From: Candidatus Onthovivens sp.
GTDB taxonomy: Bacteria > Bacillota_I > Bacilli_A > RFN20 > CAG-826
Assembly: GCA_035270825.1 (NCBI GenBank)
Contig: DATESL010000004.1
Location: 118,854 to 182,853 of the forward strand
Reading direction: 5' to 3'
Length of the DNA stretch: 64,000 bases
In this document: positions 1 to 63,057 of the stretch, piece after piece
Layout of the letters: every line of letters starts with the position of its first letter
How positions within the stretch are numbered: position 1 is the stretch's first letter
Program-made: the position numbers and the translations under genes
The notes under the pieces: generated by a model
Told to the model about the DNA's origin: nothing
What the model saw: the letters and a program-made list of their open reading frames with translations, nothing else
The model's database searches: none

Positions 1-1928
1 TTTCGATTGGAATTAACTAAGTCAGCAAATTCATCGACAACAACGACTATAATTGGCAAAATATCTAGTTTCTTTTCTTTAGCGACTTTATTATATGCAT
101 CTAAGGAATCAACAGCATATGTCCTAAGAAGTGAATAACGATCATCCATAATTTTGCATAATTCTTCCATGACATCACAAATAATATCAACATCAACAAG
201 TGGTGGACACATTAAATGTGGAACCTCATTGTATTTAGTAAACTCAACTTGCTTAGGGTCAATTAGAATAATTTTAAGACTATCAGGTGATGAACGCATT
301 AAAAATGACATTAAAACTGAGTGAATAAAAACGGTTTTTCCACTTCCAGTTGTTCCTGCAACCATTAAATGTTTTTCTTCAATCATACTTAAATCAACAA
401 AATTACCAGAAATATCTTTTCCACAACAGAATTCATCATATGGCGCTTTTTTATCGTTCAAATGTTTTAAACAATCCTTAAAGTTCACCATTGTGGCATT
501 TTTATTTGGAATCTCAATTCCACTAGTTGATTTCCCAGTAACAATAGGAACAAGTCTGGCAGGAGCTCCATCCAAACGTCTAGAAATATCATTCATATAT
601 TTATCGAAATCTTTAATTGAATAACGGCTTTCAATTTCAATATCGTATCGCGTGACACTAGGACCAATTGTGTGTCCAACAATTTGAGAATGTAAATTAT
701 AATCAATAAAAGCTTGATTCATAATTTCGGTTCTTTGTTTACAAATTTTCTCGTTTTCTTCTGAATTTACCTGACTTTTTCTATCAACAAGTAAATCAAT
801 AGAAGGAAGAGTATAAATAATTTTTTCTTTTTTCTTTTTAATTACTTCACGTTCTGGCGCACTTTCAAGTTCTTTTCTTATATCAATTGGACTAACTGGG
901 GTCAATTCAACAAAATTAACTTGAGGATCCATATGTTTATATTTATTAGAAAAATCTTCATCTAGTTTTGGAGTTGAAACAGGTTGAAAATTAGATGTCT
1001 CTTGAAAATTATCTTCAAGAACGTTGTCTGTATAATATTCATCAACAACTCTAAATTTTGCTTTTGTTAAAATTTCTTCATTATGATTACGAGGAACATA
1101 AACAGATTTATTCTCTCTTTTGTATGTTTCTTCTTGAATATTAGCTTCTTCTATTTTTTGAATAATCTTTTCTTGATCTACAATATCAACATTTCCTTCT
1201 TGGTTAACTTCAATATTAGGTACTTCTGTTTCTTCCAAGGAATTAATTGTTGTTGTCGTGTAAATCACATCTTTGGCTTGTGAATAATAATCAGTTTGTG
1301 CACTATGAATATTAATTTGACGATAATCTTTAGCTACATAAAAGAACTTAATAACAGGCTTGTAGAGTAAGAAAACAGCCCCTATTGATAATAAAACAGA
1401 TCCAATAATGTAGGAACCAATATAAGTCATTCCACTATTGATAATAGCTGTAAATAGCATTCCGATTAACCCACTATTTTTCTCTAAACTGATATTAGGA
1501 AAATTACTGGAGTTTAAAACAGTATTATTGAAAATTTCAGTAAAATTCGTAAATGTTAAATACTTAGTGATTGTTCCACTCTCATCTGTAGTAATTGTAG
1601 CCGCATTTGAAACGATGATCATAACGCCTAAAACAAAAAGAACTACACCTAAAATCCATATATCAAAATGAAATTTCTTTCTTTTTGTATAGAAAATCAG
1701 TGATAAACCATACAGAAAGAGGATTAAATAGACTAAATAGGTAAACAAGCTTCCAACAAAGAAAGCTGTAATCCAAGTAAAGAACTTAGAAATATAAATA
1801 AAATAATCCCAATTAGGAACATTTGCTAGATTTAAAGCCAAATAACAAGAGAATAAACAGATAAAAATACCAATAATAAAACGAACATTATTCTTGGTAA
1901 TTTTTAAATTTTTAAAGTAGTCTCTCAT
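1..1928 (-). CDS. ftsK: DNA translocase FtsK/SpoIIIE. The N-terminal and motor part is present; the C-terminus runs off the left window edge.
   Basis: Absent from the ORF track because there is no stop inside the window. My minus-strand translation from the ATG at 1928 gives MRDYFKNLKITKNNVRFIIGIFICLFSCYLALNLANVPNWDYF (TM region). Near the edge the same frame reads VAGTTGSGKTVFIHSVLMSFLM...LKIILIDPKQVEF...LPIIVVVVDEFADLV, i.e. Walker A and the DEFADL Walker B of the FtsK motor. Start and edge codons are in the same phase. Confidence 0.85.
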   Translation of the reverse strand, partial: MRDYFKNLKITKNNVRFIIGIFICLFSCYLALNLANVPNWDYFIYISKFFTWITAFFVGSLFTYLVYLILFLYGLSLIFYTKRKKFHFDIWILGVVLFVLGVMIIVSNAATITTDESGTITKYLTFTNFTEIFNNTVLNSSNFPNISLEKNSGLIGMLFTAIINSGMTYIGSYIIGSVLLSIGAVFLLYKPVIKFFYVAKDYRQINIHSAQTDYYSQAKDVIYTTTTINSLEETEVPNIEVNQEGNVDIVDQEKIIQKIEEANIQEETYKRENKSVYVPRNHNEEILTKAKFRVVDEYYTDNVLEDNFQETSNFQPVSTPKLDEDFSNKYKHMDPQVNFVELTPVSPIDIRKELESAPEREVIKKKKEKIIYTLPSIDLLVDRKSQVNSEENEKICKQRTEIMNQAFIDYNLHSQIVGHTIGPSVTRYDIEIESRYSIKDFDKYMNDISRRLDGAPARLVPIVTGKSTSGIEIPNKNATMVNFKDCLKHLNDKKAPYDEFCCGKDISGNFVDLSMIEEKHLMVAGTTGSGKTVFIHSVLMSFLMRSSPDSLKIILIDPKQVEFTKYNEVPHLMCPPLVDVDIICDVMEELCKIMDDRYSLLRTYAVDSLDAYNKVAKEKKLDILPIIVVVVDEFADLVNSNR

Positions 1929-1995
1929 AATGTTTATTATATAAAAAATACTGCTTAATATCTACAATAAACTTTACAAAAATTTAGATTGTTTA

Positions 1996-3684
1996 TTAGT
2001 TTACAATGATCACGTTAGGTTTAACTAAAGGATTTCTATTATTTGATTTTAGTAGAAATTTAGTAATTTCTTGGTTGATTTGTAGTTCTAAAACTTTTGT
2101 ATTGAAATCTTTTGTTTCAAAAGACCATTTATTAATACGTTCAACAAACATTTTTGTTAACTCTTTTAACATGACATCAGAATCCTTATCTTTCAAGAAT
2201 AAAAATCCTCTCATTTGAATATCTGGTCCAGCAACAATTTCTCTTTTGCTCTTCGAAACGGCACATCCTAAAACGACTACGCCATCTTTTCCAAGTCTTG
2301 TTCTATCAGAAATAATCTCAGTCACCACATCTCCTACTCCAATTCCATCAATCATCATATCGCCAACCATAATTTTATTATTTGTATTAAAATTAATTTC
2401 AGCTCCGTTTTCGTCAATGTTAATCGTTTGTCCATTATCGAGTAAGAAAATATTAAAATGTGATAAACCAATATCCATATCAAAAGCTAATTTAGCATTA
2501 GCTAATAAATCAACATAATATCCTTCAATTGGTAAATAGTATTTTGGTTTTAAAAGAGATAAAAGCATTTTTAGATCTTCTTCAAAAGCATGCATTTTAG
2601 GTAATAATTTACGAGAAACGTTTTTAACTTTACAATTTGTTCGATAAACTTCATCAAGTGCAGAAATAGCAATAACTTCATTTGAATCAGATGCAGGAGC
2701 AGCAAAAAGAAAAGTATCTCTGGCTGTTAATCTAATTTGTCTATTTTCATTTTCATTATTTGCTAAAATAGAAACTTTTTCATAAATTCTTTCGTTTTCA
2801 TCAATCATTACGATAACAAGTTCACTCTCTTTAACACGTAATACATTATCTATATCAACAATATCTTTAAAACCTGAACTATCAATATTGCCATAAGCAT
2901 TCATATCATATACAGCTTGAGATTCCTTATCGTAAAGAAAAACCTTCTTCTTATGAACTTTACAAGCATTAAATACTTCTGAGATATGATATAAATTATT
3001 ACTATTAAGAGCAATAAACACTCTTCCTTCAGCTTCTTTAAAAGCTTGTTCAATATAAGGAGTTAACTTATGACGAGGAGCACAATATCCGCTCATTTGG
3101 CTATTTACAGACTCTGCAAGTAAAATTAAAGTATTTCTTTCAGCTATTTTAGCAAGAGCGTTTAAATCTAATTTAAAGAATTTATCATTAGAATATTCAA
3201 CAATAAAATCACCACTATAAACAATGTTTCCTAATTGCGTTCTAATTGAAAACCCACAAGTTGAAGGCATTGATGAGCAGGTTGAGAAAAAATCAAATTG
3301 ATAACCACCAATTAATTCAATAGATGGTAAATTAAAAAGATGGAAATCATATTTATTTTCTTGTTGATAGAGTTTTGAAAATTCTTCTAAAAATTTAGCA
3401 GTTACTGAACCACAATAAATTGGAGCAGGTGCTACTTTATAAATATATGGGATGGCACCAAAGGAATTCTTTTTAGCTTTTGGTAGAATATAAGCTTTGA
3501 TGCGATCTTTATTATCTTTAAGGTAACTAAAATCACCAATAATAAAATCAATTCCTGGTGTACTTTTTGTAGGATATTTAAATCCAGCACCAATTACAAA
3601 AATATTGTCATTGATTTCAATGCAATATAAATCTTTCCCTTGTTCATCAAGGCCACCTAAGGCTAAAATCTTTATTTTGTCCAT
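1996..3684 (-). CDS. Ribonuclease J family protein (RNase J2-like) with all metallo-beta-lactamase metal-ligand motifs substituted
   Basis: The 562-aa ORF is collinear with Firmicute RNase J (LALGGL..GK, GNIVYSGDF, LLKPKYYLPI.G, C-terminal domain). However, IDAG is IGAG, HGHEDH is PKAKKNS (3463-3483), TTHSIPDS is STCSSMPS, and PIHGEY is PIEGYY. Confidence 0.85.
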   Translation of the reverse strand: MDKIKILALGGLDEQGKDLYCIEINDNIFVIGAGFKYPTKSTPGIDFIIGDFSYLKDNKDRIKAYILPKAKKNSFGAIPYIYKVAPAPIYCGSVTAKFLEEFSKLYQQENKYDFHLFNLPSIELIGGYQFDFFSTCSSMPSTCGFSIRTQLGNIVYSGDFIVEYSNDKFFKLDLNALAKIAERNTLILLAESVNSQMSGYCAPRHKLTPYIEQAFKEAEGRVFIALNSNNLYHISEVFNACKVHKKKVFLYDKESQAVYDMNAYGNIDSSGFKDIVDIDNVLRVKESELVIVMIDENERIYEKVSILANNENENRQIRLTARDTFLFAAPASDSNEVIAISALDEVYRTNCKVKNVSRKLLPKMHAFEEDLKMLLSLLKPKYYLPIEGYYVDLLANAKLAFDMDIGLSHFNIFLLDNGQTINIDENGAEINFNTNNKIMVGDMMIDGIGVGDVVTEIISDRTRLGKDGVVVLGCAVSKSKREIVAGPDIQMRGFLFLKDKDSDVMLKELTKMFVERINKWSFETKDFNTKVLELQINQEITKFLLKSNNRNPLVKPNVIIVN

Positions 3685-3699
3685 ATTTATCCTACCTTT

Positions 3700-4248
3700 T
3701 TACTTATTTATTATTATGGTCTTTAATAATTTGTTATCTACATTATATAGAGAAACAATATTTTTTTCATCATTAAAAATCATAAATGTTTTATCTTCAT
3801 GAATTTTTGGAAGTGTTATGCTTCCTGGATTAAGAAAATATACTCCTTTTTCCTCTTCTAGTTCATAAACATGAGTGTGTCCTTGAATATAAACATCACC
3901 TTTTCCAAGAGGAAATGAGTCTTTAGTGAATAAATCACCATGAGTTAAGTAGAAATTGATTTCATTAATTTCTACTTTTAAAGAATCAAAAAAAGGAATA
4001 TTGAAAACAACTTCATCAATGCGGGAATCGCAATTCCCGCGAATGATGATTAATTTATCTTTATATTCCCTTAAAATTTCTGTAACTTTTTTTGGATTAT
4101 AATCATCAGGCACAATATTTCTTGCTCCATTATAATTAATATCCCCTAATATCATAATTTTTTCAAATTGATAAAAAGCATTAAGTTCTACAATTTTTAA
4201 AGCGGCTCCAAGCGAACCATGAATATCACTGACAATTAAATAATTCAT
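3700..4248 (-). CDS. YfcE/MJ0936-family metallophosphoesterase
   Basis: Motifs SDIHGS, LGDINYNG, GNCDS, THGD and GHTH occur in the canonical calcineurin-like order. 182 aa. Confidence 0.8.
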   Translation of the reverse strand: MNYLIVSDIHGSLGAALKIVELNAFYQFEKIMILGDINYNGARNIVPDDYNPKKVTEILREYKDKLIIIRGNCDSRIDEVVFNIPFFDSLKVEINEINFYLTHGDLFTKDSFPLGKGDVYIQGHTHVYELEEEKGVYFLNPGSITLPKIHEDKTFMIFNDEKNIVSLYNVDNKLLKTIIINK

Positions 4249-4251
4249 AAA

Positions 4252-6588
4252 CTATTTACGGTTAAAAAATGATCTTTTCTTAGGTTTTTCTTCAACAACT
4301 TCTTCAACCTTTGGTGCTTCTTCCTTAACGATAGGAGCTGGAGCAGCTTTTTCAGAATAAGAATCACGACGATTGTTATTATATGGTCTTCTAGAATCTC
4401 CACGATAATTTGAACTTGGTTTATATTCTCTACGTGGTCCTTGACTTGAACCGTGATTATCAGAATCGCCTTCTTTTCTTTCAACAAATTCTTTATGTGA
4501 AAGCTTGATTTTTCCATGATCATCAATACCAATAACTTTAACTTTTAAAGTATCGCCTACTTTACAAATTGCAGTTGCTGATTCAACAAAACCATGAGAA
4601 AGTCTTGAAACATGGCATAAACCTTCTTTATTACCAAATAATTTAACAAAGCAGCCATAATCTTCAACGCGAGTAATGACTCCTTCAAATTCTTCACCTT
4701 CTTCAACAATACGAGCAATATCCATCACAAAAGCTTGTGCTTTTTCAATCATTAACTTGTTTGTATGATAGATAGTAACAGTGCCTTCATCATTAATATC
4801 AATTTTAACATGATCACATTTATCAATAATATCGTTAATGACTTTACCGCCACTACCAATAACTTCTTTAATTTTATCTTTTTCAATTGTGAAACTGACA
4901 AATTTAGGAGCATATTCACTTAATTCTTCACGTGGAACACTAATTGTTGCTTCCATAACTTTTCTAATTTCAGCACGTGCTTTATTAGCTTGAGCTAAAG
5001 CTTCACGTAAAATTTCTTTAGAAATACCTTTAATTTTAATATCCATTTGAAGAGCAGTAATCCCTTTACTCGTTCCAGCAACTTTAAAATCCATATCACC
5101 AAAGTGATCTTCTAAACCTTGGATATCAGTTAAAATTGAGTAAGGATGATTACCATCTAAAGGTCCAGAGGTAATTAAACCCATTGCAATTCCACTAACT
5201 AATCCCTTAATTGGAACACCTGCGGCCATTAAAGCCATACAGGAAGCACAAATTGAAGCTTGGGAACTTGAACCATTTGATTCAACAACTTCTGCCACAC
5301 ATCTAATAGTATATGGAAATTCTTCTTCAGTAGGTAAAACATAACTTAGAGCTCTTTCACCTAAAGCACCATGACCGATTTCTCTTCTCCCAGGTGTGCC
5401 CATTCTACCAACTTCACCAACTGAGTAAGGTGGGAAATTGTAATGATGCATCCAGCGTTTGGAATCTTCTGGTGATAATGACTCAATAATTTGTTCATCG
5501 TTTTTAATTCCTAATGTACAAATAGAAATTGCTTGAGTTTGTCCTCTAGTAAATACGGCACTACCATGAGTTCTAGGTAATAAATCAATCTCAGCAAATA
5601 ATGGTCTAATTTCATCAATTTTACGACCATCAGGTCTAATTTTTTCTTCAGTAATTAATCTTCTTACTTCTTTTGCAATTAAGCCTTCTAAAATATCATT
5701 AACCATTAACATAGTCATTTTATGATCTTTTTCTTTAGCATATTCACGATCATCATAATCTTCAATAATTTCATTTTTAATTGCATCAATTGCATTTTGT
5801 CTTTCTAATTTATCAAAAATAGAAATTGCTTTGACTAAACGTTCTTCACAACGACCTTTAATGTCATTAAGCATTTCTTCACTTGGTTCAAATAATTTAA
5901 TTTCTCTTTTTGCTAAACCAATTTCTTTAATAATCTCTTCTTGGAATTCACATAATTTTTTAATTGCTTCATGACCAAACATTAAAGCTTCTAACATATC
6001 TTCTTCACTCACCTCATTGGCACCAGCTTCAACCATGTTAATAGCTTCTTTGCTTCCACCAACAGCTAAGATTAAATCAGAGTTTTCTCTTTGTTCAACG
6101 GTTGGGTTGATAATAAATTGACCATCAACTCGACCAACATAAACACCAGCAATTGGACCATCAAAAGGAATATTGGAAACTCCTAAAGCTAAGGAAGCTC
6201 CAAACATTGCAGTCATTTCTGGGGTGGCGTCTAAATCAACACTCATTACAGTGTTAACAATTTGTACTTCATTTCTAAAACCTTCACTAAACATTGGTCT
6301 AATTGGACGATCAATTAAACGAGCAGTTAAGGTTGCATGTTCTCCTGGACGACCTTCTCTTCTTAAGAAGCCTCCTGGAATACGACCCATAGCATATTGT
6401 TTTTCTTCATAACCAACGGTTAAAGGGAAAAAATCACCCTCTTTTGGATTATCACTACAGCAAGCTGTTGATAAAACGACTGTGTCGTTAAGTCTAACTA
6501 AAACGGCACCATCTGCTTGTTTTGCAATTTGTCCATTTTCTACAATGAGTTTTTTTCCATAAAACTCCGTCTCAAATACTCTTTTCAT
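4252..6588 (-). CDS. pnp: Polyribonucleotide nucleotidyltransferase (PNPase) with an extra basic, low-complexity C-terminal tail
   Basis: Two RNase PH domains (GRREIGHGALGERAL, FGDMDFKVAGT), then KH (GSGGKVIN) and S1 (GVITRVEDYGCFVKL). 778 aa, followed by a tail of about 75 aa rich in R/K/S/N/P. Confidence 0.97.
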   Translation of the reverse strand: MKRVFETEFYGKKLIVENGQIAKQADGAVLVRLNDTVVLSTACCSDNPKEGDFFPLTVGYEEKQYAMGRIPGGFLRREGRPGEHATLTARLIDRPIRPMFSEGFRNEVQIVNTVMSVDLDATPEMTAMFGASLALGVSNIPFDGPIAGVYVGRVDGQFIINPTVEQRENSDLILAVGGSKEAINMVEAGANEVSEEDMLEALMFGHEAIKKLCEFQEEIIKEIGLAKREIKLFEPSEEMLNDIKGRCEERLVKAISIFDKLERQNAIDAIKNEIIEDYDDREYAKEKDHKMTMLMVNDILEGLIAKEVRRLITEEKIRPDGRKIDEIRPLFAEIDLLPRTHGSAVFTRGQTQAISICTLGIKNDEQIIESLSPEDSKRWMHHYNFPPYSVGEVGRMGTPGRREIGHGALGERALSYVLPTEEEFPYTIRCVAEVVESNGSSSQASICASCMALMAAGVPIKGLVSGIAMGLITSGPLDGNHPYSILTDIQGLEDHFGDMDFKVAGTSKGITALQMDIKIKGISKEILREALAQANKARAEIRKVMEATISVPREELSEYAPKFVSFTIEKDKIKEVIGSGGKVINDIIDKCDHVKIDINDEGTVTIYHTNKLMIEKAQAFVMDIARIVEEGEEFEGVITRVEDYGCFVKLFGNKEGLCHVSRLSHGFVESATAICKVGDTLKVKVIGIDDHGKIKLSHKEFVERKEGDSDNHGSSQGPRREYKPSSNYRGDSRRPYNNNRRDSYSEKAAPAPIVKEEAPKVEEVVEEKPKKRSFFNRK

Positions 6589-6662
6589 ATTCTTTCTTTC
6601 CTTTTTATATATTGTCTTATTTTATAACTTTTTGCCTCTAAATGCTAGGTAATTAATTTAAT

Positions 6663-6691
6663 AAAAAAACTTCCTCTTGGGAAGTTTTTAA
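6663..6691 (-). terminator. Intrinsic terminator/processing hairpin between rpsO and pnp
   Basis: Stem aacttcc (6668-6674) / ggaagtt (6680-6686), with an A run on one side and a T run on the other. Confidence 0.6.
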
Positions 6692-6698
6692 TTTTTAC

Positions 6699-6968
6699 TT
6701 ATTTTCTTAATCCTAAAGCTGCAAGTATTTTAATATATGCGTCTCTATCGATAGATTCTAGATATTTTAGTAATGATTTACGTTGTCCAACAAAGATAAG
6801 TAATGCACGTCTAGCACGGTGATCTTTGTCATTTGCTTTTAAGTGTTCAGCAAGATTTTTAATTTCTTCTGTTAATAAAGCAATTTGAACTTCACAACTA
6901 CCAGTGTCTTTAGCATTTTTACCAAATTGTTTAACAATTTCAGCTTTTCTAGTTTTGTTAATAGCCAT
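6699..6968 (-). CDS. rpsO: 30S ribosomal protein S15
   Basis: MAINKTRKAEIVKQFGKNAKDTGSCEVQIALLTEEI... I chose the internal ATG at 6968, which gives 89 aa and is preceded by AAGGAGAAAAAG. The 33-codon N-terminal extension in the ORF track is not S15-like. Confidence 0.95.
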   Translation of the reverse strand: MAINKTRKAEIVKQFGKNAKDTGSCEVQIALLTEEIKNLAEHLKANDKDHRARRALLIFVGQRKSLLKYLESIDRDAYIKILAALGLRK

Positions 6969-7114
6969 CTTTTTCTCCTTTATTTGAATTCGCTTTAAAC
7001 GTTGGTAAAGGTTGGAGTATCCTAAATCAAAGTATAAAGTACGCTTAATATTGTATAAATTTATCACCTTAAAAGCAAGATAAACTTTTAAATCTTCTTA
7101 ATACTTAGTGATTA

Positions 7115-8020
7115 TTATAAAAAATACTTTCTTGCAGTCTCTTCATCATTTTCCATTGCTTTAATTAGTTCTTCTTTTGAATAAAATTTAATTTCACAAC
7201 GTAATAATTTATAAAAATCGATAAGAATTTCTTGATCATAAATATCTCTATTAAAATCTAAAATATATGTTTCAATAGTCATATTATTATTTTCATTAAC
7301 GGTTGGATTAGTCCCTATATTTGTTAAGGAATTATAAACCTCATCATTAATAATTGTTTTAGTGATATAGACTCCACACTTAGGAATTACATAATCATCA
7401 TTTAATTTGAGATTAGCTGTTGGGAAACCAAGCTTTTTTCCTAGCCCCTTACCCTTACAAACAACACCTTCTATGCGATATTGGCGCCCTAAAAGTAAGG
7501 CTGCTTCTTCCATTTCTCCGTTTTGAATGAGAAGTTTAATTGTCGATGAAGAAATTTTGCTTTTATCGAAATTACTTAAATAATTTACAACATTCACATT
7601 ATTAAATTGATCTTTTAAATAATTAACATCTCCTAAAGCCTGATGACCATATTTAAAATCCGGTCCACAAAAAATTTCTGCTGGATTAATTTTTTTTAAG
7701 ATTTTCTCTATAAAATCACCATAAGATAAATTCTTTAAATTATTATCAGTATTTAAAATAAAGACTTTACTAATTCCAAGTTTCTCAAAACGCTTAAGTC
7801 TTCTATTAAGAGAAGTTAAACATTGGTTTGTTTTCTTTAGCGGTTTATCAAATGTTAAAATTGCTAACTCATTATTAGACATATTTTTAGCTGAATTGAT
7901 TAAATAAACATGCCCAATATGCACTCCATCAAAATATCCAAGAATAAGTGCAAACTTCTTCTTGGTTTCAATAATATCAGAATAATCATTTAGATAGGTA
8001 ATTTCCATATTTTCACTCAT
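7115..8020 (-). CDS. ribF: Bifunctional riboflavin kinase / FMN adenylyltransferase
   Basis: N-terminal GYFDGVHIGH nucleotidyltransferase motif and C-terminal riboflavin kinase (GFPTANL ... GTNPT). 301 aa, in the conserved position upstream of rpsO. Confidence 0.9.
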   Translation of the reverse strand: MSENMEITYLNDYSDIIETKKKFALILGYFDGVHIGHVYLINSAKNMSNNELAILTFDKPLKKTNQCLTSLNRRLKRFEKLGISKVFILNTDNNLKNLSYGDFIEKILKKINPAEIFCGPDFKYGHQALGDVNYLKDQFNNVNVVNYLSNFDKSKISSSTIKLLIQNGEMEEAALLLGRQYRIEGVVCKGKGLGKKLGFPTANLKLNDDYVIPKCGVYITKTIINDEVYNSLTNIGTNPTVNENNNMTIETYILDFNRDIYDQEILIDFYKLLRCEIKFYSKEELIKAMENDEETARKYFL

Positions 8021-8073
8021 TTTTCTATTTTATTATTATATTACAAAATGTTAGTATTATTAAGGAGAAATAT

Positions 8074-9237
8074 ATGAAAGCAATTAGAATTATTTTAGCC
8101 TGTATTCGTAAGGCCGATAAAGATTTCAATTTCATTGAGAATAATGACAAAATTGTCCTTGGAATTAGTGGGGGCAAAGACTCAATGGCTCTTTTATATG
8201 CTCTTCATCTCTATAAAAAGTTTTCTATAAATAAATTTGAGATTTATCCAGTAATGGTTAATCTTGGCTTTCCCAATTTTGATCCATCCAAAATTCAAGA
8301 ATTCACTCGTAGTCTTGGTTATGAGTTAGAAATTGTTGATTCTAGTCATGTTTTTGGTATATTAAAAACCTATCAAGATAATAATCAGACTCCGTTATTA
8401 CCATGTTCAATTTGTTCCAAAATGAAAAAAGCCATCATTAATAAAGCCGCTCATAACTTAAATGTTAACAAAGTCTCCTTTGCTCATCATAAAAATGATG
8501 CGATTGAAACACTCTTTTTGAATCAAATTTATGGTGGTCGAATTGCTACTTTTTCACCTAAAATGTATTTAAGTCATGAAAAAATAAGCTTTATTCGTCC
8601 TTTGGTTTATTGTAATGAAAAAGATATTATTCGTTTAGTAAAAGAAGAAAAAATAACTGTAATGGGTTCTTCTTGCCCTAATGATAAATTCACTAAACGT
8701 CAAGACATCAAAGAAATTACTAATCAAATCGTTGAAAAATTCCCCTCTAGTGAGGAAAATTTTTTAACGATGCTCAATAATAAAGAGAAATTAGACTTAT
8801 TCTTTGATCATTTCGATCATAAAATTGATAAAAAGAACCTCAGTTATAAAGAAATTATCTCCATAAAAGATTACATTGAAGTAAAAAACTACATCAAGGA
8901 TTTAAAATTAACTAAAAGTGAAGCTGTTTATCAAATTTTTAAGTTGTTAAAACGAGGAAAGTTAGAAGGAGTCTTCTATATTTTGCAAACTAATCGCGAT
9001 TTTGTAATTGAAACTTATAAAATTAAAGATCCACAGAATTTAAAATTCTTTCTTTTAGATTTTTATTTTGAAATTTATCAAAAATATAATCCAACAACCC
9101 TTTTAGTTTATGTTAATAATGAAGATTTAGAAAAATTAAGTGGTTTAGACTACATAATAAAAAGGAAATTAAAGTCTAAAACCTTAATTTCCTTTAACTA
9201 TAATCCTAAAAACGCTTTAAAAGAGCTTATTCTTTAA
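8074..9237 (+). CDS. PP-loop ATPase of the TtcA/tRNA-thiolation family with an unassigned C-terminal domain of about 140 aa
   Basis: SGGKDS PP-loop and a CSICSKMKK cysteine motif. It lies on the opposite strand inside an otherwise minus-strand block. Confidence 0.65.
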   Translation: MKAIRIILACIRKADKDFNFIENNDKIVLGISGGKDSMALLYALHLYKKFSINKFEIYPVMVNLGFPNFDPSKIQEFTRSLGYELEIVDSSHVFGILKTYQDNNQTPLLPCSICSKMKKAIINKAAHNLNVNKVSFAHHKNDAIETLFLNQIYGGRIATFSPKMYLSHEKISFIRPLVYCNEKDIIRLVKEEKITVMGSSCPNDKFTKRQDIKEITNQIVEKFPSSEENFLTMLNNKEKLDLFFDHFDHKIDKKNLSYKEIISIKDYIEVKNYIKDLKLTKSEAVYQIFKLLKRGKLEGVFYILQTNRDFVIETYKIKDPQNLKFFLLDFYFEIYQKYNPTTLLVYVNNEDLEKLSGLDYIIKRKLKSKTLISFNYNPKNALKELIL

Positions 9238-15729: not shown

Positions 15730-15803
15730 TGGAGCATCAAACGGGAATCGAACCCGCATCCTTAGCTTGGGAAGCTAATATTCTACCACTGAACTATTGA
15801 TGC
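15730..15803 (-). tRNA. tRNA-Gly (anticodon CCC as I fold it)
   Basis: The reverse complement GCATCAATAGTTCAGTGGTAGAATATTAGCTTCCCAAGCTAAGGATGCGGGTTCGATTCCCGTTTGATGCTCCA folds into a cloverleaf: acceptor GCATCAA/TTGATGC, anticodon stem TTAGC/GCTAA, loop TTCCCAA, GTTCGATTC T-loop and encoded CCA. Confidence 0.8.
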
Positions 15804-21046: not shown

Positions 21047-21123
21047 TGGTGACCCGTACGGGATTCGAACCCATGAATGCATGCGTGAAAGGCATGTGAG
21101 TTAAGCCACTTCTCCAACGGGCC
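21047..21123 (-). tRNA. tRNA-Glu (UUC)
   Basis: Reverse complement GGCCCGTTGGAGAAGTGGCTTAACTCACATGCCTTTCACGCATGCATTCATGGGTTCGAATCCCGTACGGGTCACCA, with anticodon loop CTTTCAC. Confidence 0.85.
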
Positions 21124-21134
21124 ATCTAATAAAA

Positions 21135-21209
21135 TGGCGCTGACTAAAGGATTCGAACCTTCAACCGATCGGTTAACAGCCGATTGCTCTACCGTTGAGC
21201 TAAGTCAGC
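21135..21209 (-). tRNA. tRNA-Asn (GUU)
   Basis: Reverse complement GCTGACTTAGCTCAACGGTAGAGCAATCGGCTGTTAACCGATCGGTTGAAGGTTCGAATCCTTTAGTCAGCGCCA, with anticodon loop CTGTTAA. Confidence 0.9.
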
Positions 21210-62598: not shown

Positions 62599-62700
62599 AG
62601 AAAATTATCTCTTAAATTCCGACCCATGAACAAAACCCACAGCAAATCCACCAAAAAAAACATTGATGGTGGGCTATAAATTAGTATGTCTGGTGGAGAT

Positions 62701-63057
62701 GCGGAGAGTCGAACTCCGGTCCATATATAGCCCCACAAAGAGCCCTACAGTTTAGTAAATATTATTTATTTAACGTTTTAATCAACATTTACAAACTTTG
62801 AACGCGAGATATTTAATGTTTTCATTGCTGACCTAATATCTAAGCCATCACCTATCTTCTTTTTTTACAAACGGTCTTACAATAAGAAGCTAACATGTAA
62901 GGGTTCGCGCACAACCTCTAAAGAGATTTTAATACTGCACTAAGCAGCAAATGCGAGGTTTAATTGTCTGTTGCCAGATAATTGATTGTTGGTGTTTAAC
63001 GCCACCACACGACTGCTCTCTAAGCCAAACTATATATGTCGAAACCATAACATCCCC
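62701..63057 (-). ncRNA. ssrA: tmRNA (SsrA)
   Basis: The reverse complement starts GGGGATGTTATGGTTTCGAC and ends GGACCGGAGTTCGACTCTCCGCATCTCCACCA (tRNA-Ala-like acceptor/T-arm). The tag frame GGC AAC AGA CAA TTA AAC CTC GCA TTT GCT GCT TAG gives GNRQLNLAFAA* (62940-62975). Confidence 0.92.

Follow-up and report, generated by a model that had tools for sequence, protein, structure and literature searches.

Does a protein that has kept the build of ribonuclease J (RNase J), and has lost nearly all of the residues with which such enzymes hold their metal ions, still cut RNA, or has it been retained for some other purpose? The question is raised by a gene at positions 1996..3684, on the minus strand, of a 64,000-nucleotide stretch of DNA from Candidatus Onthovivens sp. 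(contig DATESL010000004.1 of assembly GCA_035270825.1, positions 118,854 to 182,853; here called the window). The source assembly comprises 764 kb in 32 contigs, is 82% complete and has a GC content of ~29%. The gene is rnjB-like, and its product, which we call P0001, is a 562-residue orthologue of RNase J2 without the metal site. We think that P0001 is probably a non-catalytic subunit of a heteromer of RNase J1 and RNase J2 (J1 and J2 below), which no longer cuts RNA and instead stabilises J1 or steers J1 to its substrates.

The open reading frame (ORF) starts with ATG, and a direct reading of the sequence finds a Shine-Dalgarno-like AGGTAGGA 5 nt upstream of it (3690..3697, minus strand). 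Residues 4-556 of P0001 match positions 1-543 of the 546 positions of TIGR00649, the RNase J family model, with 328.5 bits (E 6e-98). This score is below the curated NCBIfam cut-off of 400 bits, whereas the J1 of the same genome scores 578 bits. In a Pfam scan RNase_J_C was the sole domain above threshold (57.9 bits), the beta-CASP model, at 24.6 bits, fell short of its cut-off of 27, and Lactamase_B gave no match at E≤1. The best match among solved structures is staphylococcal RNase J2 (6k6w/8yyh; 274 bits over residues 4-557), as compared with 235 bits for Bacillus subtilis J1 (3zq4) and 212 bits for a further J1 chain. Because the E-values are 1e-80 and better, the resemblance between P0001 and RNase J is not a matter of chance. 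An AlphaFold2 model based on 93 aligned sequences has a mean predicted local distance difference test score (pLDDT) of 86.4 and a predicted template modelling score (pTM) of 0.74, with pLDDT below 50 in segment 448-458 only. Compared by Foldseek, this model gives template modelling (TM) scores of 0.79-0.80 with the RNJ2-RNJ1 integrative model 9a5v, of 0.75-0.80 with RNase J crystal structures and of 0.89 with 6k6w, the latter normalised to the shorter 6k6w chain (root-mean-square deviation 2.9). P0001 shows both the end-to-end homology and the three-domain architecture (beta-lactamase, beta-CASP and C-terminal domain) by which membership of the RNase J family is recognised. An earlier sequence-only reading of this DNA had described a 562-aa protein that matches RNase J over its whole length and has a conserved C-terminal dimerisation domain; the first statement is borne out by the ORF and by the TIGR00649 and PDB alignments, and the second by RNase_J_C being the strongest Pfam match in P0001.

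We located the metal-binding positions by aligning P0001 with the intact J1 of the same genome and with PDB chains (HMMER, MAFFT). The seven canonical metal ligands are the H, H, D and H of motif II, the His of motif III, the Asp of motif IV and the His of motif C, and six of these seven are replaced in P0001. In motif II, HxHxDH has become K69-A-K71-K-N73-S74 (codons P68-K69-A70-K71-K72-N73-S74 at 3463..3483, minus strand, as are all codons given here), with K69 and K71 in place of the first two His residues. The canonical His of motif III is S137 (3274..3276), and that of motif C is E387 (2524..2526). The ligand that is kept is the bridging Asp of motif IV, D159 (3208..3210). The canonical Asp of motif I is G32, the acidic residue of motif A is E191, and the His of motif B is kept as H365 (2590..2592) in the J2-type context MHAxEED. 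P0001 does not carry the enzyme-type RNase J motif set (I-IV, A-C), of which D159 and H365 remain. The sequence-only reading had every catalytic ligand replaced, which is right for six of the seven and overstated in that D159 and H365 persist. Its individual substitutions recur in our alignments for IDAG (I31-G32-A33-G34), THGHEDHIG (PKAKKNSFG, residues 68-76, with the range 3463-3483 correct by arithmetic), TTHSIPDS (S134-TCSSMPS), LSDSTN (L189-AESVN) and PIHGEY (P385-IEGYY). We do not find the loss of the motif B His that it proposed (HTSGHG to KMHAFE), as both aligners set H365 (LPKMHA) on that His, and the GNIVYSGDF segment that it took for mere framework contains D159, the metal-bridging Asp.

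How fixed these replacements are was counted over 76 database clusters of the same clade, 55-65% identical to P0001, and over 43 outgroup J2 clusters. K/R-x-K at the first two motif II His positions is found in all 76 clade clusters, the K69 position being K in 75 and R in one and the K71 position K in every one, while Asn at the N73 position and Ser at the S74 position are seen in 56/76 and 43/76. The motif III position is His in 43/43 outgroup clusters; in the clade it is A in 54, S in 16, C in 5 and T in 1. At the E387 position the clade has E (64), Q (7) or K (5), and K is found in 40/43 outgroup clusters. D159 is invariant on both sides (76/76 and 43/43), and H365 is kept in 76/76 clade and 42/43 outgroup clusters.

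The fixed Lys pair beside D159 and E387 suggests putative salt bridges or a phosphate-binding patch that would replace a structural metal. One could go further and propose that the pocket has been rebuilt, K69/K71 together with D159/H365 forming a metal-free phosphate clamp that would hold the 5' end or the backbone of the RNA, let J2 choose the substrates of J1 and, in the boldest form of the idea, cleave without metal. We regard such a clamp as unlikely. A remodelled pocket that is still active as a weak nuclease could work either without metal, D159 serving as the base, H365 as the acid and K69/K71 stabilising the phosphate, or with a single Mg or Mn on D159/E387/E191. It would account for the invariance or near-invariance of K69, K71, D159 and H365 in clusters whose median site entropy is 1.0 bit. 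Two precedents lend it some plausibility: the motif B His of Deinococcus radiodurans RNase J is described as touching the scissile phosphate and serving as general acid (PMC4477667), and Staphylococcus aureus J2 has been proposed to rely on E166, at the motif IV position, and on H80 in a mechanism without direct contact between metal and substrate (PMC11815676). However, the equivalent of H80 is Asn in P0001 and variable in the clade, the E387 position is Q or K in 12/76 clade clusters, and the literature that we searched gave no case of an active beta-CASP enzyme, RNase J included, that lacks the His cluster. Moreover, in a genome of 29% GC mutation pressure favours Lys. Continued activity of the pocket is in our estimate distinctly improbable.

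A motif-intact candidate partner is present in the same genome. The sequence-only reading had called for a search for a second, motif-intact RNase J, and one was found on contig C30 (6168-7808). This J1 has 560 aa, is the 578-bit match to TIGR00649 mentioned above, which exceeds the cut-off, and has all of its motifs intact (IIDAG, HGHEDH, THS, GDF, DST, HSSGH and HGEY). HGHEDH is likewise present in 28/28 J1 sequences that we read within the genus and the wider order. A third, weak RNase J match in the genome was discarded as an unrelated 217-aa protein of the metallo-beta-lactamase fold.

P0001 retains the RNase J fold in full, together with the C-terminal dimerisation domain and the residues of the dimer interface, and strong purifying selection maintains it beside this intact J1. 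In the mechanism that we propose, a non-catalytic P0001 would join J1 in a heteromer, and its role there would be the stabilisation of J1 or the targeting of substrates. The interface residues D46, D446, D452 and R550 are conserved in P0001, and by numbering D452 is the counterpart of B. subtilis D449, and R550 that of the B. subtilis J2 contact residue R544. We favor a non-catalytic heteromer subunit because the C-terminal domain and these interface residues are kept, and because of the behavior of published J2 mutants. In S. aureus a J2 variant with H76A-G-H78A grows as wild type while a J2 deletion does not, from which a structural role was inferred (PMC3937233), and the single bound Mn of S. 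aureus J2 is described as mainly structural (PMC11815676). With B. subtilis J2, the H76A substitution leaves the half-lives of dacA and cheV unchanged and the interface mutant R544E acts like a deletion; the same report calls J2 a specificity factor of J1 and likens J1/J2 to CPSF73/CPSF100 (bioRxiv 10.64898/2026.05.27.728192). The dimer of D. radiodurans RNase J needs the C-terminal domain and a site made up of Gly59, Asp61, Asp456, Gln476 and Glu477 (PMC4477667). The ligand loss is our one ground for a putative loss of catalysis, and binding to J1 and an effect on J1 are likewise what we infer from sequence. With that qualification the data support the sequence-only reading of P0001 as a maintained but probably non-catalytic partner of the J2 type.

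We also asked whether the gene is decaying and about to be lost. Three observations could be taken that way, namely the six missing ligands, a score under the curated family cut-off and non-synonymous evolution about 1 to 3 times faster than that of J1. The ratio of non-synonymous to synonymous substitution rates (dN/dS), calculated by the Nei-Gojobori method for the 17 closest pairs (dS 0.17-1.03; more distant pairs were saturated and were ignored), is 0.021-0.145 for the J2-like gene, with a median of 0.071. In the same genome pairs J1 has a dN/dS of 0.006-0.090 (median 0.041), and non-synonymous changes in J2 are 0.99-3.0 times as numerous as those in J1. Such low ratios speak against decay, as do full-length frames in which no internal stop was found in the J2-like matches of 57 genus genomes; the sole split copy (L008) is broken by a run of 10 N and not by mutation. 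In addition, 82 of the 562 positions are invariant across the 76 clade clusters. We consider decay highly improbable and, as far as sequence can show, rejected the pseudogene reading on these selection and retention data, in line with the earlier description of the gene as maintained. The best-conserved parts of the protein are the two halves of the beta-lactamase domain. Ninety-nine positions are conserved in both the ligand-poor clade and the His-bearing J2 clusters, while only 8 have switched from one fixed residue in the latter to another in the former, the two His-to-Lys changes being the most radical of these. The metal site apart, the constraints on P0001 are those of its ancestors.

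In a tree of 73 sequences from a quick maximum-likelihood search, the ligand-poor copies of the genus form one clade (support 100 in the Shimodaira-Hasegawa-like approximate likelihood ratio test, SH-aLRT; stem length 0.47) nested within the J2 of the order, and J1 forms a separate clade with a support of 100. The motif B context MHAxEED is common to P0001 and the J2 of the order. This placement and the higher score against J2 (274 bits) than against J1 chains (235 and 212 bits) agree with the identification of P0001 as an RNase J2. The gene order ribF-rpsO-pnp-(metallophosphoesterase)-rnjB-ftsK is also found in the sister genera G036 and G048, whose J2 is still His-bearing, and rnjB and ftsK are adjacent in two genomes of another family (G005 and G025); in G015, G016 and G020 the rnjB neighbors were not seen within the fetched stretch. 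Given the placement of P0001 within J2 and the gene order held in common with sister genera, its gene is by both position and phylogeny the rnjB orthologue of a genus of gut bacteria, within an order of uncultured Bacilli that have small genomes.

The distribution of the J2-like copy was followed through the order. Among the named relatives of P0001, at 58-60% identity, are Candidatus Onthovivens merdipullorum and metagenome-assembled genomes (MAGs) labelled Mollicutes or Bacilli, and one genus genome is identical at the rnjB locus to the Candidatus Onthovivens merdipullorum record. RNase J matches occur in 120 of 121 sampled genomes of the order, mostly two in each. Within the genus, 57 of 60 genomes have a J2-like match of at least 56% identity (truncated in 2 of them by contig ends or gaps), one has a 91-residue fragment at a contig end, and two, 70% and 85% complete, have J1 and no J2-like match. 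The J1 and J2-like copies co-occur among genus genomes that are at least 90% complete. K/R-x-K occupies the first two motif II His positions in all 29 other genus genomes in which the locus was read.

The other genera of the order were represented by 47 J2 orthologues, made up of 27 from the best-scoring loci and 20 picked among lower-scoring ones. Both of the first motif II His residues are kept in 43 of the 47. In nearly all of them the last motif II His has given way to Q, E, N, S or another residue, and the His of motif C mostly to K. One or both of the first two His residues have been lost independently in four more J2 of the order (G103, G066, G024 and G012). The replacement residues in these four (loci L105, L118, L119 and L117, respectively) are unlike those of this genus, and genus g5 is mixed, with two His residues kept in L016 and L035 and not in L118 and L119. 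Since the last motif II His and the motif C His are gone throughout the order, its J2 was a one-site protein, much like B. subtilis J2 (HGHDEN), and the genus lost the remaining site once. The two ligands of the second metal site went first, order-wide, and the remaining site was lost in the ancestor of the genus, where HxH gave way to KxK, Asn mostly replaced the Asp of motif II, and Ala or Ser took the position of the motif III His.

The neighbors of the gene bear on a further possibility, that P0001 acts independently of J1 as an RNA-binding protein or as a scaffold for decay enzymes such as polynucleotide phosphorylase (PNPase), whose gene is the second one upstream, or RNase Y, which the source genome also encodes. 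All genes concerned lie on the minus strand. Directly upstream of the rnjB-like gene is a metallophosphoesterase gene (Metallophos_2, 3700..4248; Pfam 81 bits), followed by pnp (4252..6588; Pfam RNase_PH, PNPase, KH and S1), rpsO for ribosomal protein S15 (6699..6965; Ribosomal_S15, 105 bits) and ribF for FAD synthetase/riboflavin kinase (7115..8020; Flavokinase and FAD_syn). Downstream, an ftsK/spoIIIE gene (3..1928; FtsK_SpoIIIE 115 bits, FtsK_alpha 58 bits) runs off the window. That the gene adjoins ftsK had been seen before; the assignment is supported by Pfam, and the His-bearing orthologues of sister genera adjoin ftsK as well. Presumably rnjB also lies near spoIIIE, the ftsK homologue, in Bacillus. 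The gaps of 3 and 15 nt between pnp, the metallophosphoesterase gene and rnjB, their single orientation and the lack of a minus-strand terminator-like site between them would fit a J1-independent role alongside PNPase. However, the pnp...rnjB...ftsK order is inherited from relatives with a His-bearing J2 and is therefore uninformative on the ligand-less form specifically. The conserved C-terminal dimerisation domain and interface residues, and the joint presence of J1 and J2-like copies in the more complete genus genomes, also count against such a role, which we hold to be quite unlikely.

The same region holds several further features. The Metallophos_2 gene between pnp and rnjB has the same layout in G048 and G112 and was not detected at this place in G036, L005 and L007. 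The PNPase has 778 aa, its S1 domain ends near residue 699, and the last ~80 codons encode a long, seemingly disordered tail with many Arg, Ser, Lys, Glu and Pro residues. A 95-aa ORF that overlaps the end of pnp (4245-4532) is probably spurious. An 11-bp palindromic hairpin with a T-run between rpsO and pnp (6665-6689) is the sole terminator-like site in positions 1-8200, and a promoter scan returned 45 sites where 46 were expected. Elsewhere in the window, on the minus strand, are a tmRNA gene (62691-63057, 126 bits) and three tRNA genes (15733-15803, 21050-21123 and 21138-21209).

Several points weigh against a non-catalytic J1 partner. K69 and K71 equal the best-kept sites of the protein in conservation and D159 and H365 are invariant, so that the old pocket is under constraint; this could mean a chemical or an RNA-binding role and not an inert scaffold. 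Furthermore, D449 of B. subtilis J1 is reported to pair with R544 of J2, whereas J1 throughout the order is without the equivalent Asp, the stretch being IDG-x-D-x-x-G and not ending in Asp (L001, L066-L078, L087-L100). The J1/J2 interface of the order may thus differ in detail. As the Asp is already absent from J1 of the whole order, this position gave no signal of J1 co-evolution specific to the genus. Finally, the orthology tree rests on a quick search, and the dN/dS pairs, which cluster in four sets of related genomes, are not independent of one another.

Among characterized proteins, RNase J2 (RnjB) of S. aureus and Staphylococcus epidermidis (6k6w, 8yyk) is the best structural sequence match and has the same three-domain fold as P0001. 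Staphylococcal J2 is paired with an active J1, and the S. aureus protein can do without its catalytic His residues in vivo (PMC3937233). Staphylococcal J2 keeps H76, H78, H80, H144 and E166 with one Mn (PMC11815676); P0001 has K69, K71, N73, S137 and D159 at these positions, which leaves no His-based site. Motif II of B. subtilis J2 is partly degenerate too, and its HGHDEN recurs as the same six residues in the J2 of family f8 of the order. B. subtilis J2 nevertheless keeps the first two His residues and weak activity, whereas P0001 has neither His. In eukaryotes CPSF100 (with CPSF73) and IntS9 (with IntS11) are likewise ligand-poor paralogues kept as partners of an active beta-CASP nuclease, a partnership that for P0001 is putative. 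They are distant from it, being without the RNase J C-terminal domain, and Integrator and CPSF73 chains give TM scores of about 0.5-0.56. The analogy of J1/J2 to pairs of the CPSF100/IntS9 type has been drawn in print (PMC8501993; bioRxiv 10.64898/2026.05.27.728192), and a 2021 review (PMC8501993), with reference to Callebaut et al. 2002, reports active:inactive beta-CASP pairs from several bacteria.

When 1.84 billion cluster representatives were searched without a profile, 6496 matched at E≤0.001, and the best 150 of these were tabulated together with P0001 as 151 rows. In this set all seven ligands are present in 59 rows and at least five of seven are changed in 31, three of them from this clade. 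The 151-row alignment was made in a fast MAFFT mode, in which single positions of divergent rows may be off, and nine rows were realigned carefully. The careful alignment finds ligand-poor, full-length J2-like proteins in Mesoplasma photuris (WP_031543288.1), a Spiroplasma endosymbiont (WP_342252449.1), a Bacillales MAG (MDR0831547.1) and four further lineages. Of the seven ligands, 6-7 are changed in the three named proteins, whose identity is 25-28% with J1 and about 28-33% with P0001, and most of them keep the J2-type MHAxxED context of motif B, as does P0001. They are independent losses, with motif II reading for instance N-P-S or K-V-S, and a fixed K-x-K is found in this genus only. Ligand-poor copies of J2 have arisen on many occasions, with examples in Mesoplasma, Spiroplasma and other genera of the order. 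The sequence-only reading took a ligand-less J2 for an extreme case; that the J2 is ligand-poor is confirmed, but it is less unusual than claimed, such copies being common. Our literature searches gave no description of a J2 without the His cluster in this lineage.

The kind of protein, a ligand-poor J2 partner, is already known; this clade stands out by its fixed K-x-K replacement and by clean retention across the genus. For proteins of this kind the automatic label 'ribonuclease J' overstates what they can do. P0001 and its orthologues are a natural counterpart of the laboratory J2 mutants in which loss of the catalytic His has no phenotype, as a whole genus keeps J2 under strong selection after loss of the site. 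This retention supports the view that the main job of J2 is non-catalytic. Recurrent ligand losses in J2 could also help to map which of its surfaces matter, be it the interface, the groove or the C-terminal domain.

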